This document shows, in pieces, positions 29,064 to 36,617 of a stretch of 64,000 nt of DNA. Under the pieces are notes generated by a model, which was given only the letters and a program-made list of their open reading frames with translations, was not told the DNA's origin and ran no database searches. The stretch is from a phage. The translations under genes were made by a program, and so were the position numbers. Within the stretch, counting starts at the first letter, position 1; each line of letters starts with the position of its first letter. Location of the stretch: the sequence record PZ496580.1; one strand, written 5' to 3'.

Positions 29064-30121
29064 TGAAAATTAGTGTTATCAATGATGCCGTTGATAGCTT
29101 TAAAGCGGGGGTTAAAACCTCCGCTGGTTTTACCTCAAAAAATAAAGGGAAAACATTAACCGCTCAATTCCCCGCTGAACGTGCTAGCGGTAATGATGCT
29201 AGCGGTTATTATATCAACGACTTATATAATAATGGTCTGTTATTCACTGCATACGATTACACATCTCGTACTACTGGATCGCTGCGTGATTTCAGGAAAA
29301 AGAAAAATGTTGCTGGCGGTTTTGGTGGTAGCGTTAATATCGCTGGTTTTGATTTAAATTTGGGAGGGAGAAATGCTGCATTTGACCGCGAGGCAATTGC
29401 TAATATTCTTCTTCCTCGTAGTCAATCTGACGTTGACGCTGCTAGCCATAAGTTTAATGATGTTGGTGAATCTGTTATTTCTCGCGGCGGTGGTACTTTA
29501 GGCGGTGCTCTTTCTAATATGGCATCTACTGCCGTTTTTGGTGGTATCGAAAGTATTACTGGTGGATACCTTGCCGATCACGGTGAACAGATTTATAATA
29601 CTGCAAGAAGCATGTATGCTGGTGCTGACGCACGAACTAAAAACTACGTATGGCATCTAACCCCACGTAGTATTGAAGACCTTCGTAATATTCTGATCAT
29701 ATACGAAACGTTTTTAGAGTTGTCTTATGGTTCTAGTGGTATTTCCAGCACCGCAAAAGAATTAAAAGCGGAAGTTGATGCGTGGTATAAAAATACACTA
29801 TTGAGCAAATCCACTCCAGCCGAGGCAAAGAGAAATGATACGCTGTTTGAAGGGATCACCGATTTTCTATCCAACGTAATTACTGTATCTAACCCGACAA
29901 TATGGATGATCTCTAACTTCGGTAAGCGTACATCATTTGAAGGGCGTAGCGATGCATTTGGTCCCGCTCAGATCTCAAGTGTACGTCTGGACAAGTCGCC
30001 TGATGGTAAGTTTAATGGCCTTGCTATTTCTCCTAACTTGCCTAGTACCTTTGTTCTGGAAGTATCATTTAGAGAGATCTTGACACTTTCCCGTGGTACT
30101 ATATTTGGGAGTGCGGCATAA
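29063..30121 (+). CDS. 48: Baseplate tail tube cap (gp48)
   Basis: 352 aa; synteny and size. Confidence 0.75.
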   Translation: MKISVINDAVDSFKAGVKTSAGFTSKNKGKTLTAQFPAERASGNDASGYYINDLYNNGLLFTAYDYTSRTTGSLRDFRKKKNVAGGFGGSVNIAGFDLNLGGRNAAFDREAIANILLPRSQSDVDAASHKFNDVGESVISRGGGTLGGALSNMASTAVFGGIESITGGYLADHGEQIYNTARSMYAGADARTKNYVWHLTPRSIEDLRNILIIYETFLELSYGSSGISSTAKELKAEVDAWYKNTLLSKSTPAEAKRNDTLFEGITDFLSNVITVSNPTIWMISNFGKRTSFEGRSDAFGPAQISSVRLDKSPDGKFNGLAISPNLPSTFVLEVSFREILTLSRGTIFGSAA

Positions 30122-31053
30122 TGTTTGATTTAAATGATTTTAACGAACAAGCCGCTAACCTTGACTTTCAGCGATCTAACTTATTCAGCGTGGCATTTGC
30201 CACCACTCCAAGTAATAAGACACAAGCGATCCTAGAAAGTATGGGTGGTGCGGTATATGATATTATACCAAATGCATTAAATGACTATTTCGGGATTACT
30301 CGCGGTGATTATACGGACGCATTAACAAATCTTGCTGTACAGGGCGTTAGGCGTGCTGTTGATTCATCCGGCGTCAAAAAGTATCTTTTAGGTGCAATGT
30401 CATCCCGCGTAGTTCAATCTCTTCTGGGGCAATTTGATGTTGGTACATATGCGCTTGATTGGTTCAATATGGCATATAAGACAAGCGGTCTTCTGGTGTA
30501 TGCTGTTAAGGTTCCAGAAAACAGATTGAGTTATGAAATGGACCGTAACCACAATGCGCCAAACATTCGAATTACCGGACGTGATTTTGATCCGCTTGTA
30601 TTGAGCTTTAGAATGGACTCTAGCGCATCAAACTATAGAGCAATGCAGGATTGGGTTAACTCAGTAGAAGACCCCGTTACAGGGCTTCGTGCGCTTCCTG
30701 TTGACGTTGAAGCAGATATTCAGGTTAACTTACATAACCGAATGGGAGTTCCTCACACGATCATGATGTTTAACGGTTGTGTTCCTGTTGGTGTGAGTGC
30801 ACCGGAATTAACCTATGAAAATAACAACGAAATCACAACATTCGATGTTACTTTTGCATATCGTTCTATGCAAACTGGTGCTGTGGGAGAGCAAGCCGCG
30901 CGAGAATGGATTGAGGATAAGGCAATAAACGCAATAACAAACACTTTCGGCAATAATTTACTTGATAGTGGGTTATCTGCTGCTGGTAATGCTTTATCGC
31001 GTCTAAATGGCGTTGGTGGGCGTGTGGTGAATACTGTCACTAACTGGTTCTGA
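30121..31053 (+). CDS. 54: Baseplate tail tube initiator (gp54)
   Basis: 310 aa; synteny and size. Confidence 0.75.
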   Translation: MFDLNDFNEQAANLDFQRSNLFSVAFATTPSNKTQAILESMGGAVYDIIPNALNDYFGITRGDYTDALTNLAVQGVRRAVDSSGVKKYLLGAMSSRVVQSLLGQFDVGTYALDWFNMAYKTSGLLVYAVKVPENRLSYEMDRNHNAPNIRITGRDFDPLVLSFRMDSSASNYRAMQDWVNSVEDPVTGLRALPVDVEADIQVNLHNRMGVPHTIMMFNGCVPVGVSAPELTYENNNEITTFDVTFAYRSMQTGAVGEQAAREWIEDKAINAITNTFGNNLLDSGLSAAGNALSRLNGVGGRVVNTVTNWF

Positions 31054-31060
31054 TAAGCGA

Positions 31061-31092
31061 AAGGCGGGGATTATCCCCCGCCTTTTTATTTT
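31061..31092 (+). terminator. Terminator after gene 54
   Basis: GGCGGGGATTATCCCCCGCC hairpin followed by TTTTTATTTT. Confidence 0.6.
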
Positions 31093-31571
31093 GCTAAATC
31101 ATTGCAATATTTTAGTGCCTTAGTTTGAAATTCTGCGCTGTTAAGTTCTTCATAACGGTCATAATCACCGTTTAATGCTGCCTTTCTTGCTTCTTGCTCT
31201 ATCTGCATGTCAGACATGATAATACAGCGATCCCGTGCTTTCATCTTCTCAAGTTGTATAGACTCTTCTTTCTGCTTGCGCAATTCTTCTTGACGCTTCT
31301 TTTCTTCTTGTGCTTTCTCTTCCCGCGCTTCTTTGATTGCATCCTTGAACATCTGCGTTTGTGGTGCTAAACCAACTTTAACGCGATCCACGTCTCGACG
31401 TTCCATTTTAGAAATAAAGCATGATTCGATCTGATCATCGCTTGCATATGCTGCTTTACATTCACGAAGCAAGAAAACCGGATCTGATTTAGCATTCATC
31501 ATAGCTTCCATGTTAGCACAACCAGTAAGCATGAATGCAGCCGCAAGACCAATCAGTTTAATCATTTTCAT
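31086..31571 (-). CDS. Putative lipoprotein (161 aa)
   Basis: Signal peptide with lipobox LTGC; charged coiled-coil region. Confidence 0.55.
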   Translation of the reverse strand: MKMIKLIGLAAAFMLTGCANMEAMMNAKSDPVFLLRECKAAYASDDQIESCFISKMERRDVDRVKVGLAPQTQMFKDAIKEAREEKAQEEKKRQEELRKQKEESIQLEKMKARDRCIIMSDMQIEQEARKAALNGDYDRYEELNSAEFQTKALKYCNDLAK

Positions 31572-32392
31572 TTAGTCACCTCACCGAAAATTGTAAATTG
31601 TCTACGATTCTCATCGCCGAAGGATTCTACTACGTCGTTTACCTTGATGCAAGTCCCGCGCGGTAAAATTACTTCACATTCGCAAGGATTCCATGCAATA
31701 GACCCAACAACAAAACCTTTATGATCTTTTACGTCAATTACCCATGATACATTACAAGAATGTTGCATCTTTCCGGTCATTGATTCATATCGATTCTCAC
31801 AATAAAGGCTAGTGCTGTTTGAAAGCCATCCTCCAAAGATGATCGGTGTCATGCTGGTCGACACAAAGTTTTTAAAGGTAAACTCCTTATCTTCAATGAT
31901 ACGCTCTATTGTCTGAATGTCAAGATGTTGACCACGATAAAGAGTACCGTTTAACTTTTCGGTTTTATCCATGACGCAATCCATCAAATCAACAATTTCT
32001 GATATCTCGTCGGTCATGTCTTCTTCCCCTAAGAGAGCACCATTTACCCATTCGTATTGTTCAGACACATAATCACAGATTGCATTATATTCTGCTGGGG
32101 TTATGTTGTTATGTTTGTAATGTTTGAATACATTATCTCCAAAGTCTTCGGAGTGTACTTCATACATCACATTAATGATTTTCTTGACAAATCCATAATC
32201 TTGCGTCTCACGCTCAAGGAAGCGAATAACCTTCACGTAATCATCAAAGTTAATCTGATCGCTGATCATCTCAGTGATCATGTAACCATTAATCCCCTCA
32301 ATGCCATATGTTTCGATGTAATTATCCATACGTTCCATCATTGATTCGCGTGATTCTTCTGAAAGACGAAAATCCTGTAATTGTTTGAACAT
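31568..32392 (-). CDS. Alt-like ADP-ribosyltransferase paralog (274 aa)
   Basis: R-S-E triad: LYRG, FVSTS, CECEVILPRG. Confidence 0.7.
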   Translation of the reverse strand: MFKQLQDFRLSEESRESMMERMDNYIETYGIEGINGYMITEMISDQINFDDYVKVIRFLERETQDYGFVKKIINVMYEVHSEDFGDNVFKHYKHNNITPAEYNAICDYVSEQYEWVNGALLGEEDMTDEISEIVDLMDCVMDKTEKLNGTLYRGQHLDIQTIERIIEDKEFTFKNFVSTSMTPIIFGGWLSNSTSLYCENRYESMTGKMQHSCNVSWVIDVKDHKGFVVGSIAWNPCECEVILPRGTCIKVNDVVESFGDENRRQFTIFGEVTK

Positions 32393-32410
32393 TTTAAACC
32401 TCCCATATAA

Positions 32411-32446
32411 CAGAAAACGGGGCTAGTATAAAACTAGTCCCCGTTT
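32411..32446 (-). terminator. Terminator after alt
   Basis: Minus-strand hairpin ACGGGGACTAGTTTTATACTAGCCCCGT followed by TTTTCTG. Confidence 0.5.
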
Positions 32447-32470
32447 GAGTCAACCATTATTTCTTAAAAA

Positions 32471-34522
32471 TTACATTTTAAATTTATCTGGCATTGCGTC
32501 TACAGATACCAGATCAGCGATAAGCTGACGTAGAGTTGCCTTATCTGCTTTCTTACGTTCGGTTTTAGCTTCGGTAATGAAGCTGGAGAAAGAAAGGTCA
32601 GAAGCAGGTTTAACAACACCTTCACGGATGAATGCATCACCGTCCGCGATCATCTCGCCAGATTCTTGTAATGCTGCCAGTTCATTTTTGTTCATAATAT
32701 GTGCCTCAATGTAATAAGTTTCTTGTGAATCCGTTGATGCCGTAGCACGAGTTACCGTATCAAAGGATAACACAACACCGCGAGGAAGTAAAATCTCGCA
32801 TTCTTTGTAAGCAAATGCCTTGTTACCTACTGGCAATACAGGGATGTTTTCCGCGCCAGCGATAGAGAAAGCAACATTAGCGCCACCTTCACCGCGAGAT
32901 CCCGCCATAGAATCAACACCAGCAACGGCACTAGCCACGTTTGCATTCCACCCACCAAAAATATTAGGTGCAAGGGAAGTGCTCACATAGTTTTTAAAGT
33001 AAAACGCTTTTTGCTTACGTGCAGTTTCCCACATTTGAGACCGGAAGTCCATACCACGATACAGAATAGTACCAGGATCAAGTTTAACGCCATAGTTAGA
33101 GAAGGCATTATCCAGTGCATCACACATCTTGACCAATTCTTCTGGGTCTGCGATGCCATCAAACTCTTCCAGCTTACGATCGGTTAGGAAGTTGTTCATA
33201 TTGATGTATGCTGCATCGGCATATTCGCTCAACACAAAACCTTCCGCGCCAGGCAGGTCAAGATCAATATCTGCCATCATTTCACCCATGTTGCTAGCAA
33301 TTGCTTCAAACATACCGGAAGCAACATTACGCAGGGCATCGGTTTTAATCTGCGTGATGTGACTACGAAGCATTTCAGCTTTTACATCTGCTGGCATAGA
33401 CTGGTCTACTCGATCCATTGCTAAGGCAGTGATCTTGTTTTCGAATACTTCCTCGTTCATGATTTCTTTTAAGCGTTTGATTGATGCTGCGATAACTTCC
33501 GCAGACAACGGATCATATTGATCCTGAACTTTTACCAGTTCGCTTACTGCGTATTTTGCATCGGCCTCGCTTTCAAAAATAGTACGCATGAAACCATAGC
33601 GAGTGATAATATCACTTGTCCAATCATTCAGAGAACGCGCGGTTGAACGTTCTAAGGCTTGACGGTCAATCAGAGTATTAAACTGTTTCTTAGGTTCGGC
33701 TTCGGTGATATCTTCTTCCGGTTTAAGATTAATTTTTTCTGGATGATTCACATAGTCGCTGTTATAGGTCGCTTGAGTTTTCAGCATTTCTTCTTTAGTC
33801 AAACGAGATTTAGCCGCTACGCGTTGTTCTGCTTCCGCGTTTCGTTCTTCTTCTGACACAAGACTAGCCGCATACGCTTCATCTTTAGTCAGAGATTCGC
33901 CAGTAGCCTTAGATACCCAGCGATCACCTAAATCACTTTCTACTTTAGTGAACAAGGATTCATCAAGTTTAATCCCTTTAATCTTATCAATCGCCATCCC
34001 GCGACGTTTGACAACAACTAAAGCGATCTTTTTGCTGGTCATTACTTCCTGCTGGAATACTTCAAACTTCGGTGTACGACGCACCAAACGCTCTATAACG
34101 CGCTTAACCAGTTCGGTCTTACCTTTCATGCGGGATACGTTAAAACGGAACATAACAGCGTCTAATTGCGCTTTACGGGCTGTTTCCATAACCACATCAA
34201 AAGCACTTGCCATAACTGCAATCGGGTTATCGCCTAGACCATTTTTAAGCTGTACAATACGACCGCTTTTGTTCATTTCGCACAGTACAACATGTGCGGT
34301 CTTGTCACCCATACGAATGATTTTAGGTGTTTTGTTGGTGAAGTTACAAAGACGGACAATCACATCTTTATCGCGTGTCTGTACTGCAAAAAGCTGTTTA
34401 GGATTCTGCTTAGGCTTTAAGCACTGTACCGGGGCAATACTGCCAAAGTTTTCTTCCTCTTCTGTCAACAGCCATTTCTCGAAAGATTCAATCATTAGAT
34501 CGTCGATTTCTAAGTTAAACAT
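32471..34522 (-). CDS. alt: Alt ADP-ribosyltransferase
   Basis: 683 aa (T4 Alt 682); R-S-E triad ILYRG, YVSTS, ECEILLPRG. Confidence 0.85.
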   Translation of the reverse strand: MFNLEIDDLMIESFEKWLLTEEEENFGSIAPVQCLKPKQNPKQLFAVQTRDKDVIVRLCNFTNKTPKIIRMGDKTAHVVLCEMNKSGRIVQLKNGLGDNPIAVMASAFDVVMETARKAQLDAVMFRFNVSRMKGKTELVKRVIERLVRRTPKFEVFQQEVMTSKKIALVVVKRRGMAIDKIKGIKLDESLFTKVESDLGDRWVSKATGESLTKDEAYAASLVSEEERNAEAEQRVAAKSRLTKEEMLKTQATYNSDYVNHPEKINLKPEEDITEAEPKKQFNTLIDRQALERSTARSLNDWTSDIITRYGFMRTIFESEADAKYAVSELVKVQDQYDPLSAEVIAASIKRLKEIMNEEVFENKITALAMDRVDQSMPADVKAEMLRSHITQIKTDALRNVASGMFEAIASNMGEMMADIDLDLPGAEGFVLSEYADAAYINMNNFLTDRKLEEFDGIADPEELVKMCDALDNAFSNYGVKLDPGTILYRGMDFRSQMWETARKQKAFYFKNYVSTSLAPNIFGGWNANVASAVAGVDSMAGSRGEGGANVAFSIAGAENIPVLPVGNKAFAYKECEILLPRGVVLSFDTVTRATASTDSQETYYIEAHIMNKNELAALQESGEMIADGDAFIREGVVKPASDLSFSSFITEAKTERKKADKATLRQLIADLVSVDAMPDKFKM

Positions 34523-34561
34523 TTTATATCCTCTAGTTGATAACCTATAAACCTATATTTA

Positions 34562-34587
34562 TGAAAAAGGGGCTTAACGCCCCTTTT
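34562..34587 (-). terminator. Terminator GGGGCGTTAAGCCCC plus T-run
   Basis: Same hairpin recurs at 39020-39040. Confidence 0.5.
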
Positions 34588-34588
34588 A

Positions 34589-34801
34589 TTATAATGCACC
34601 ATCAAGCAATTGCTCTAAGGTGTATCCTGAATAGTCTTTTTCAATCAGGATATATTTTCCTACTCGTTTAATCCAACCGCGCATTTCAACGTATTCTGCG
34701 TAGTTGATGGTACGAGTTGTTCCATCTTCCAGTAATGCAGTACCGATTTCGTTGATGCGGTCATAAGTTACGTCGGTAATGATGATTTCGATGTTAGCCA
34801 T
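34589..34801 (-). CDS. Hypothetical protein (70 aa, MANIE start)
   Basis: ATG 9 nt after SD AAGGAG of promoter cassette 34838-34866; shares first five codons with ORF 36856-37107. Confidence 0.45.
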   Translation of the reverse strand: MANIEIIITDVTYDRINEIGTALLEDGTTRTINYAEYVEMRGWIKRVGKYILIEKDYSGYTLEQLLDGAL

Positions 34802-34837
34802 TTGATACTCCTTAGTAGTTCGTTTCGGTATGTGTGC

Positions 34838-34866
34838 ATTATAGGGGATCACCGATCCCCTGTCAA
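34838..34866 (-). promoter_or_regulatory. Early promoter cassette (PeSL-type): TTGACA-N17-TATAAT with palindromic spacer
   Basis: Minus strand reads TTGACAGGGGATCGGTGATCCCCTATAAT; spacer is a perfect inverted repeat. Confidence 0.7.
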
Positions 34867-34874
34867 CAACTTTT

Positions 34875-35393
34875 TTAGTTATTTTTTAATTGCTCATCTT
34901 GCAATAGGGCAATCACATGCTGGCGATGTTCTTCCGATTGAGGCACACCGAAAAAGTTTGTTTTGTAGAAATACTCTAATCGGTCTTCTCGTGTGCTCTC
35001 TTCCATCATGATCGCTGGTAGACCAAGATTGCGGAAACGTCGCTTTTCTGCTGGCGTAAAATCGCTGTAATACAGCATAGAATCATCATTACCAGCAATG
35101 CTAAACTCATCCTTCATGAAGGAGAATATTGCGTTTAAACGCTGTTTACCGTCCACGATTTCGATCTCATAGCGAGAGCCATCATCAATCTTAGCCATTG
35201 CGATAGCGCCTACCGGAAAATCATTAATCAGGTTTTCGATAAACATACGTTTGTTTTCTGTGTCCCATACCAAAGGACGCTGATAATCTGGGTTCATGTT
35301 GATATAGCCATCTTCTAACCATGCTTCGTAAACAGAGATGACAAAGTTTTTAGTATTGGTATAGTAACGGCGTTTAGGCGTTAAACGGTTCAT
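34875..35393 (-). CDS. DUF262 / ParB-like nuclease-domain protein
   Basis: DYQRPLVW...FPVGAI...IVDGKQRL matches the DUF262 (GmrSD N-terminal) signature. Confidence 0.6.
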   Translation of the reverse strand: MNRLTPKRRYYTNTKNFVISVYEAWLEDGYINMNPDYQRPLVWDTENKRMFIENLINDFPVGAIAMAKIDDGSRYEIEIVDGKQRLNAIFSFMKDEFSIAGNDDSMLYYSDFTPAEKRRFRNLGLPAIMMEESTREDRLEYFYKTNFFGVPQSEEHRQHVIALLQDEQLKNN

Positions 35394-35569: not shown

Positions 35570-35901
35570 AATATAGTTCTCCTGAATGGATCATCACGTA
35601 AATCAATATCTTTTAAGAACTCATCCCATGAATGGCGGATATTGTTCTTAATTCTCCAGATAAGCGCAGGGATTGAACGCTCACCCATCTGGAAGTAAGG
35701 ATCATATGATCCGTATGCCCAATATGCTACTACAATTCCACAATCAGCGCAATAGTATTCTATCTCGCTTGCTGGCGACCAAAGTCCATCAATATGATCG
35801 GTGATCTTGCTTTCAATGTTATGACTATGGCAATTAGGGCAACGTATGCAATGACCTTGTTTATCGTAATTTGACGTTAGAGAATACTTAAACAATCTCA
35901 T
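35566..35901 (-). CDS. Zinc-ribbon protein (111 aa)
   Basis: CIRCPNCH ... CADCG four-Cys arrangement; TAATG coupling to the upstream MTase-like gene. Confidence 0.5.
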   Translation of the reverse strand: MRLFKYSLTSNYDKQGHCIRCPNCHSHNIESKITDHIDGLWSPASEIEYYCADCGIVVAYWAYGSYDPYFQMGERSIPALIWRIKNNIRHSWDEFLKDIDLRDDPFRRTIL

Positions 35902-36617
35902 TATAGATCCTTATTGGCTTCAAATACTGCCTTTGCGAATCCTCGCGGGGTAAGTGACCTGATAGTCTTTGTTCTGGTTCCTTTCCCGCCTAGCTTAGAA
36001 TGCTGTTTGCTGTACCCTTTATTAATCGGCAACGGTTTCTTTTCTGGCATTATAAAGCCTTGTCCGGTCCACAAGCAAGTCTTTTTCGGGTACATATCAC
36101 GGGAGGCAATATACTCAGGAAACGTAGGATGTATATCATCTTCCGGCAAATAACCGCCATATTCCCACGGATGGAACATGTAATCAGGCTTACGCCACAT
36201 GCTAGAGATAACGCTTACAGGATTCTCTATCATGTAGGGAACTCCTAGCCATTCACCCAAATAAGCGGTTATTTTAGCTGCCCTTACATCATGAATTTGA
36301 ATTAATGGTCCTTGCTCTCGTTTCTTTCGTTCAAAGTGTGCAGCGCCACTAACAGCTAAATTGGTGCATGGTGGGAATGCAAATATAATATCCGGTTTCC
36401 CCCATTCAAGGTCCATTGCTCTTTCCAGCCAGTTCAAATCAATCCATGTGTTTACATAGGTAATGTTTGGATGTTCAAATCGGGTATTATATTTTTTGTA
36501 TGTACCGTGGTCGCCATCGTCAGCATTAAAGCAGATCACCTTATGACCTGCTTTAGCCCATTCTAGCCCCATTATCCCCGATCCGTCAAAGTTGCAGAAT
36601 ATTAATTTTTGTTTCAT
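35901..36617 (-). CDS. Minimal C5-cytosine methyltransferase-like protein (238 aa)
   Basis: Motif I-like FDGSGIMG, motif IV DIIFAFPPC, motif VI ENP, motif IX-like RSLTPRG; no room for a target-recognition domain. Confidence 0.55.
   Translation of the reverse strand: MKQKLIFCNFDGSGIMGLEWAKAGHKVICFNADDGDHGTYKKYNTRFEHPNITYVNTWIDLNWLERAMDLEWGKPDIIFAFPPCTNLAVSGAAHFERKKREQGPLIQIHDVRAAKITAYLGEWLGVPYMIENPVSVISSMWRKPDYMFHPWEYGGYLPEDDIHPTFPEYIASRDMYPKKTCLWTGQGFIMPEKKPLPINKGYSKQHSKLGGKGTRTKTIRSLTPRGFAKAVFEANKDL

Follow-up and report, generated by a model that had tools for sequence, protein, structure and literature searches.

ADP-ribosylation by Alt, ModA and ModB is a classic means by which a phage reprograms the transcription and translation of its host. 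ModB has reportedly been shown to attach RNA to proteins as well, which is said to have brought renewed attention to phage ADP-ribosylation. T4 has three ADP-ribosyltransferases (ARTs), namely Alt, which is an NAD:arginine ADP-ribosyltransferase, ModA and ModB, of which the latter two are expressed early and are not packaged. T4 Alt is present in the virion, is trimmed at its N-terminus by the prohead protease and is injected together with the DNA (PMC9958956). Here we analyse two Alt-family genes that lie side by side at 31568-34522, on the minus strand, in a 64,000-nucleotide stretch of phage DNA (sequence record PZ496580.1), which as a whole we call the window. One is a full-length alt, the other a short gene encoding an Alt-like ADP-ribosyltransferase of 274 residues (hereafter the short ART), and a lipoprotein gene follows directly downstream. 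We propose, with a probability of roughly 60%, that these two enzymes, probably arginine-specific mono-ADP-ribosyltransferases of the R-S-ExE type, are used at different times, Alt being injected with the DNA and the short enzyme being made early and left out of the virion.

The window comes from a Krischvirus, that is, an RB49-like, T4-type coliphage: the 3.6-kb region around the locus shows a nucleotide identity of 97.9-98.2% with 59 phage records, every one of which belongs to this genus (among them RB49, Phi1, JSE, GEC-3S and MIZ6). The existence and the nature of both enzymes are already known at the level of annotation, the gene pair being annotated in RB49 and some 59 related genomes, and they are an ordinary feature of RB49-like phages. 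The full-length gene is annotated as alt in RB49 and GEC-3S, and the short gene is labelled ADP-ribosyltransferase in many Krischvirus records. Its RB49 homologue, RB49p183 (98.9% amino acid identity), bears the RefSeq note 'similar to C-terminal part of T4 Alt protein', and in the W115 record its downstream neighbour is labelled a putative lipoprotein. In the literature searched we found no discussion of the timing, packaging or targets of the short enzyme, nothing specific on short Alt paralogues and no Krischvirus virion proteome.

Results

A predicted early-type promoter within the alt terminator

The regulatory elements of the locus are given in Table 1. Upstream of alt, a hairpin with a GC stem and a T-run ends the preceding early transcription unit, and the box CATAAATA follows directly after it. 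A hairpin stands at the same place upstream of alt in T4, in RB51 and in the distant relative L007, and the position of CATAAATA directly after this terminator is occupied by TATAAATA, the T4 late-promoter consensus, in T4 and RB51 and by AATAAATA in L007. The ribosome-binding region of alt also resembles that of T4. Judging from sequence and position, the CATAAATA box would act as a late promoter.

Upstream of the short gene, no TATAAATA-like box was found. There is instead a predicted sigma-70 promoter of the early type (TTGACT-17 nt-TATACT), with its -10 box placed within the hairpin that terminates alt. This promoter is annotated in the GEC-3S record, and the early-promoter consensus of RB49 accommodates its -35 form, GTTGAC (PMC1524935). 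Minus-strand terminators are missed by the promoter and terminator scan and were checked by folding; the alt terminator folds at -20.9 kcal/mol with a z-score of -2.8 (-5.6 for its equivalent in L007), and the stem differences between relatives keep the pairing. A transcript started at the short-ART promoter would not contain the 5' arm of this hairpin and therefore would not terminate at it. The element that combines promoter and terminator, TTGACW-N3-ACGGGG-N3-AGTTTTATACT, occurs only once in the window, with 0 occurrences expected by chance, and it is kept in four related loci (L007, L011, L012 and L013). It is near-invariant in these loci, where the short-ART proteins are only 83-45% identical to that of the window, and the ribosome-binding site of the short gene is conserved alongside it. 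With such a promoter the short ART would be made early. The preliminary suggestion that it may not be packaged gains indirect support from this promoter after the alt terminator and from the lack of Alt's N-terminal domain and C-terminal tail.

Motifs, families and fold of the two enzymes

Both open reading frames (ORFs) are located where the preliminary description of this DNA had placed two Alt-family ARTs, and both belong to Pfam PF03496 (ADPrib_exo_Tox; curated cut-off, 23.4 bits), at 37.4 bits (E 2.2e-9) for Alt and 58.4 bits (E 7.9e-16) for the short ART. Alt further matches PHROG 802, 'Alt-like RNA polymerase ADP-ribosyltransferase', with its residues 16-683 on profile positions 2-674 (E 8e-180), and the short ART matches PHROG 15144, 'ADP-ribosyltransferase' (E 7e-197); a search of NCBIfam gave no matches. 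The R-S-E triad that had been read in both proteins is present in each, in Alt as LYRG at 487-490 (R489), STS at 514-516 and ECEILLPRG from 574 (E574, E576), and in the short ART as LYRG at 151-154 (R153), STS at 178-180 and ECEVILPRG from 238 (E238, E240). The last of these motifs had been written as ECE-x-LPRG; ECE followed by LPRG is indeed found in both, with two residues between them, not one. Among the six-frame ORFs of the window, the YRG...STS...ExE pattern occurs in these two proteins only, and a family hidden Markov model (HMM) likewise matches no others. By sequence, the motif and profile matches of both proteins are far beyond chance.

No solved structure of Alt was found by sequence search, and the fold was assessed by model for the short protein only. 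Its AlphaFold2 model has a mean predicted local distance difference test score (pLDDT) of 84.9 and a predicted template modelling score (pTM) of 0.82. Searched against the PDB with Foldseek, it matches at probability 1.0 only C3-like and binary-toxin ARTs, including Vis, Certhrax, C3bot, CDTa and iota Ia (E 2.7e-11 to 1e-8). In the model, R153, STS and E240 lie in or at the start of the beta-strands 146-158, 177-180 and 240-243, a placement that agrees with the C3-like ARTs that the model matches, and an alignment of the short-family profile to PDB sequences puts LYR on the YR, and ECE on the ExE, of BECa, Lmo0066 and Vip2. The preliminary description had named a short paralogue without the catalytic glutamate, as seen in a structural alignment, as the finding that would contradict it. 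Because model and profile alignment both put its motifs on the catalytic sites of ARTs, this residue is present and in place in E238-x-E240. The R, STS and ExE residues are invariant in the short-ART homologues at 45-83% identity, and homologues of 271-288 residues at 45-63% identity retain every catalytic residue. The ExE form of the ADP-ribosylating turn-turn (ARTT) motif is that of the arginine-specific type, as in Vis and iota, and QxE is the C3 form; ExE rather than QxE would predict an arginine acceptor for the short ART. Both proteins are Alt/VIP2-family R-S-ExE ADP-ribosyltransferases, and both genes look functional.

Relation of the short ART to Alt

The 683-residue protein is colinear with residues 15-679 of T4 Alt (26% identity, E 1.6e-57), and the N-terminal Tevenvirinae_ADPRT region, PF26846, is listed on its 99% identical cluster representative; by this alignment it is the orthologue of T4 Alt. 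In the alignment to T4 Alt that the preliminary description had proposed, the short ART corresponds to the C-terminal half of Alt only. It aligns to positions 331-602 of the 674 of PHROG 802 and to approximately residues 300-620 of full-length metagenomic Alts, with 31% identity to T4 Alt over 181 residues and 37% to its neighbouring Alt across 109 residues at the catalytic core. It had been described as the catalytic core alone. This is correct in that the N-terminal ~320 residues of Alt (the region listed as PF26846 on Alt homologues) are missing; however, the short ART is a complete C3-like ART domain that keeps a conserved helical N-terminal extension of ~65 residues, and it also lacks the C-terminal tail of Alt, ~80 residues that end in a conserved M-P-x-K-F.

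A search of 1.84 billion representative proteins with the short ART returned 88 matches, of which 3 are full-length members of its family and nearly all others are Alts of 600-712 residues. A neighbour-joining tree built from the catalytic region (171 columns aligned to the short-family HMM) shows the short family as a separate clade, with a support for monophyly of only 65%, and the family pairs with the co-resident Alt in 0 of 100 bootstraps. The short ART also scores no better against its own Alt (67 bits) than against T4 Alt (87 bits). A recent duplication of the neighbouring alt is rejected on both counts. Because the short family is separate and never pairs with the adjacent Alt, the short ART is, as far as the tree can tell, an old Alt-derived offshoot and not a recent copy. 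Another, independent instance of an Alt paralogue truncated at its N-terminus was encountered outside the window, in Tequatrovirus-like contigs (14 contigs, up to 166 kb): this 415-residue alt.-2 ORF, P0007, starts in mid-protein and retains the ART domain together with the C-terminal tail.

T4 carries broken remnants of a duplicated alt (alt.-1/alt.-2) at the equivalent position, and P0007 is a case of alt.-2 being cut to a C-terminal ORF in some Tequatrovirus contigs, both of which would fit a short gene that is degenerating after a duplication of alt or that encodes a catalytically dead pseudo-enzyme. Selection on the gene points the other way. The ratio of nonsynonymous to synonymous substitution rates (dN/dS), taken against a metagenomic homologue of 83% identity, is 0.10 overall and close to that in both parts of the protein (residues 1-95, 0.105; residues 96-274, 0.085). 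Fifty-nine phage records contain the undisrupted ORF at an identity of at least 97%, and homologues as distant as 45% identity keep the catalytic residues invariant. Moreover, the gene has a dedicated, conserved promoter and ribosome-binding site, and an ART fold is confidently predicted for its product. With dN/dS and conservation ruling it out, the pseudogene remnant is largely refuted, and we consider this explanation very improbable.

One Mod gene and a third ADP-ribosyltransferase

An HMM search of a composite genome, made up of the window and of RB49 for the parts outside it, identified three ART genes and no others, namely those of Alt, of the short ART and of one Mod protein. There are no further ART genes in the window beyond the first two. 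The RB49 Mod gene, RB49p014, encodes 167 residues, adjoins srd and resembles ModB (E 1e-9) more closely than ModA (E 3e-5).

Given one Mod gene in Krischvirus and two in T4, it is tempting to regard the short ART as the Krischvirus orthologue of ModA or ModB, since it is of a similar size class (274 residues against 200-207), has an early-type promoter and carries the R-S-ExE motifs. The family comparison contradicts this. The Mod-family HMM gives the short ART an E-value of 4.4, as compared with 5.6e-78 for RB49p014, and the hhalign probability between the short ART and the Mod family is 2.4%, by which membership of the Mod family is ruled out. The nearest relatives of the short ART are all Alts, and its gene is found at the alt locus, between alt and gene 54, whereas the mod genes of both T4 and RB49 adjoin srd. 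Orthology to ModA or ModB is therefore an explanation to which we attach next to no probability. The short ART could still be a functional analogue of ModA without being a member of its family, and it may fill the slot of the missing Mod, a suggestion that concerns role and not homology.

Also outside the window, RB49 (NC_005066, 50040-50495; L015, 40-495) has a gene Tk.4 that is annotated with an A1pp (macro-domain) motif. Its product might read or remove ADP-ribose and so be relevant to the phage ADP-ribosylation programme; T4 has a gene that is likewise named tk.4.

A mosaic cassette with a lipoprotein gene

A lipoprotein gene with a coiled coil had been reported immediately downstream, and its assignment as a lipoprotein gene holds. 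The start codon of the gene overlaps the TGA of the short ART (ATGA), the lipobox L-T-G-C is found at residues 15-18 and is accompanied by four further conserved cysteines, and the AlphaFold model (pLDDT 86) is all-helical with a helix of 62 residues at 72-133. The protein has no informative match in Pfam, NCBIfam or Foldseek; its weak PHROG match to the Cor exclusion lipoprotein (E 0.0074) covers the signal-peptide region only.

In all relatives with downstream sequence (L007, L011, L012 and phage Whisky), the lipoprotein gene comes directly after that of the short ART and either overlaps or adjoins the stop codon of the latter, and the order Alt, short ART, lipoprotein, gp54 is conserved in a distant metagenomic relative. 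The parts of this cassette differ in their history. The lipoprotein evolves much faster than the short ART, and in 6 Krischvirus records its mature part is replaced by an allele of ~29% identity, with 98-99% identity retained in the signal peptide and in the ART. Identity between the window and Whisky stays at 97.9% across the short ART and into the first 19 lipoprotein codons, which encode the signal peptide; over the mature lipoprotein (31086-31515) no nucleotide similarity is detectable, with ~29% amino acid identity and the four cysteines kept, and gene 54 is only 83% identical. In L011, a Logan contig from SRR24907467, amino acid identity to the window falls from 98% for Alt (synonymous divergence, dS, 0.31) to 83% for the short ART (dS 1.1) and 30% for the lipoprotein. 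The end of the cassette that holds the short ART and the lipoprotein appears to have been exchanged by recombination independently of alt, and the lipoprotein looks like a conflict or surface-related gene, perhaps with a function in exclusion.

The strict linkage and the start/stop overlap in Whisky, L007, L011 and L012, together with a lipoprotein that is fast-evolving and allele-swapped in the manner typical of conflict genes and that weakly resembles Cor, raise the possibility of a toxin/immunity or exclusion pair in which the lipoprotein neutralises the short ART or acts as its partner, for instance for superinfection exclusion. However, the short ART has no signal peptide, and it would be expected in a different compartment from the four-cysteine lipoprotein, which makes a direct toxin/immunity relation unlikely. 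The Cor match does not reach beyond the signal peptide, the lipoprotein fold has no informative match, and the allele swaps leave the ART 99% identical, which is at odds with tight co-evolution. We judge such a pair to be quite improbable.

Features of the locus and neighbouring genes

The baseplate genes gp48 (tail-tube cap) and gp54 (tail-tube initiator) lie upstream of the locus on the plus strand, and T4 alt sits in this same neighbourhood, by genes 54 and 48.

Table 1. Features at and around the two ADP-ribosyltransferase genes of the window, with the basis of each assignment
Feature	Position	Strand	Basis and remarks
Gene 54	30121-31053	plus	convergent with lipoprotein gene
Bidirectional terminator, lipoprotein gene / gene 54	31059-31086	both	terminator scan, 11-bp stem; GEC-3S annotation on both strands
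Lipoprotein gene, 161 residues	31086-31571	minus	lipobox, ATGA overlap, PHROG 16112 (unknown function)
Short Alt-like ADP-ribosyltransferase, 274 residues	31568-32392	minus	ORF, PF03496, PHROG 15144, AlphaFold2/Foldseek
Terminator hairpin of alt, 13-bp stem then UUUUCUGUU	32415-32446	minus	fold
Predicted sigma-70 early-type promoter of short ART, TTGACT-17 nt-TATACT	32425-32453	minus	scan 10/12; GEC-3S annotation
alt, full-length Alt ADP-ribosyltransferase, 683 residues	32471-34522	minus	ORF, PHROG 802, Pfam PF03496, T4 Alt alignment
ART catalytic domain of Alt, residues ~425-610	32693-33250	minus	Pfam PF03496 envelope
Late-promoter-like box CATAAATA	34556-34563	minus	33 nt upstream of alt start; T4 consensus TATAAATA
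Intrinsic-terminator hairpin upstream of alt (AAAAGGGGC-GTTAA-GCCCCTTTTT)	34564-34587	minus	sequence, fold, GEC-3S annotation

The terminator that precedes alt comes after a small ORF (34589-34852) of 87 residues from a GTG start, for which ~70 residues would follow from the homologue of 213 bp that is annotated in GEC-3S and RB49. Upstream of this ORF is a perfect sigma-70 promoter, TTGACA-17 nt-TATAAT (12/12; 34838-34866, minus strand). Two further minus-strand genes lie in the early region upstream of alt. The first, an ORF of 172 residues (34875-35393), resembles GmrSD type IV restriction enzymes in their N-terminal domain (PF03235, DUF262/ParB-like; E 4e-20) and has no C-terminal nuclease part; it is annotated as hypothetical in RB49 and GEC-3S. 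The second, of 238 residues (35901-36617), has a homologue, RB49p189, that is annotated as a DNA methyltransferase.

Discussion

The arrangement of promoters and terminators supports, although it does not prove, a division of labour in which Alt is late and packaged and the short enzyme is early and unpackaged. We suggest that Alt would be transcribed late from the TATAAATA-like box just after the terminator and, by analogy with T4, would be incorporated in the core of the prohead, shortened at the N-terminus and injected along with the DNA; the injected enzyme would, again by analogy, ADP-ribosylate proteins of the host, for example the RNA polymerase alpha subunit. The short ART, on the other hand, would be transcribed by unmodified host RNA polymerase from the sigma-70 promoter inside the alt terminator, newly synthesised within the first minutes after infection and not packaged. 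It might thereby serve as a second-wave cytoplasmic ART, the role that ModA and ModB have in T4. The lipoprotein gene would be co-transcribed and translationally coupled with it, and the lipoprotein itself would be periplasmic.

Several points weigh against this proposal. The promoter of the short ART is a consensus match only, and the region-wide promoter scan was not enriched relative to shuffled sequences (12 promoters found, 10.1 expected). The late box of alt has one mismatch, differing from TATAAATA at the first base, which is C. The short gene could also be expressed late, by transcription that runs through the alt terminator. Internal protein genes of T4 are expressed both early and late, and an early promoter is therefore compatible with packaging. 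In addition, L-S-E at residues 10-12 of the short ART fits (L/I)-x-E, the pattern of T4 prohead protease sites, although in Glu-rich N-termini chance produces this tripeptide rather often, and it is meaningless alone. The absence of ModA rests on the RB49 sequence for those parts of the genome that lie outside the window, and no expression, proteomic or enzymatic data on any Krischvirus ART were found in the literature searched. Finally, the packaging determinants of Alt are not known even in T4 (PMC9958956), so the loss of the N-terminal domain is only suggestive.

An alternative to early, unpackaged use is that the short ART is also an internal head protein, a second injected ART that uses its own short signal for targeting or cleavage at the N-terminus. 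Tandem Alt paralogues, probably both packaged, are found at the same locus in RB51 and T2, and the short gene adjoins both alt and baseplate genes. The (L/I)-x-E pattern occurs within the first 12 residues not only of the short ART but of most members of its family, and the early and late transcription of the T4 internal protein genes would be consistent with this alternative as well. Nevertheless, the short ART is missing the whole conserved N-terminal region of Alt (PF26846) as well as the C-terminal tail, and (L/I)-x-E in a short, Glu-rich N-terminus is weak as a signal. The short gene is separated from alt by a terminator, has no TATAAATA-like box before it, and shares an operon, with coupling, with the gene of an exported lipoprotein, not of a head component. 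We therefore regard packaging of the short ART as unlikely.

The target of the short enzyme might be speculated upon. It may have taken over the job of ModA, completing the ADP-ribosylation of RNA polymerase alpha, or it may modify something else in the host, for example a factor of defence or of translation, and together with the lipoprotein it would then make up a conserved early 'takeover plus exclusion' cassette. We hold this more specific idea to be possible but doubtful.

The locus does not contain a new kind of gene, and what our analysis provides is mainly a regulatory and evolutionary context that refines the existing annotation. It adds the structural and profile check of the catalytic residues, the purifying selection on the short ART and its placement in a clade of its own, the promoter-in-terminator element that relatives conserve, the three-gene cassette, which is conserved but mosaic, and the count of one Mod gene. 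Krischviruses reach three ARTs by another route than T4 does, with an Alt that is probably packaged, one Mod and a truncated Alt-derived enzyme with a predicted early promoter. Provided that the short enzyme is early and stays out of the virion, RB49 would lend itself to telling the parts of Alt that serve packaging from those that serve catalysis, and to studying how freely ART families can exchange roles. Should the takeover idea also be true, Krischviruses would constitute a natural experiment in which T4-type phages have rebuilt a three-ART programme from different parts.

Among the known systems, T4 Alt is the closest to the full-length protein, which is colinear with it, shows the same R/STS/ExE residues and occupies the same position beside genes 54 and 48, with an upstream layout of terminator, late-promoter-like box and similar ribosome-binding region in common; the Krischvirus Alt is nonetheless only 26% identical, and its late-promoter-like box begins with C. 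The short ART departs further from T4 Alt, lacking the N-terminal ~320 residues and the C-terminal tail, having its own early-type promoter and falling in a separate clade. Like alt.-2 of T2 and RB51 and the alt.-1/alt.-2 remnants of T4, the short gene is a second alt-derived gene directly downstream of alt, between it and gene 54. Yet alt.-2 of RB51 is of full length (685 residues), begins 3 nt after alt and has no promoter, and the T4 remnants retain only the N-terminal part of Alt, without the ART domain. The Krischvirus copy, in contrast, consists of the ART half only, has its own predicted promoter and shows no specific relation to alt.-2 in the tree. To ModA and ModB the short ART is similar as a small, stand-alone R-S-ExE ART with a predicted early promoter and, probably, the same place in the infection programme, but it has no detectable family-level homology to them and lies at another locus. 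With the C3-like and binary toxins (C3bot, Vis, Certhrax, iota Ia, CDTa and Vip2) it shares the predicted fold and the alignment of Arg, STS and ExE, while being only 15-20% identical, of phage origin, without a secretion or translocation component, and extended at its N-terminus by ~65 additional helical residues.

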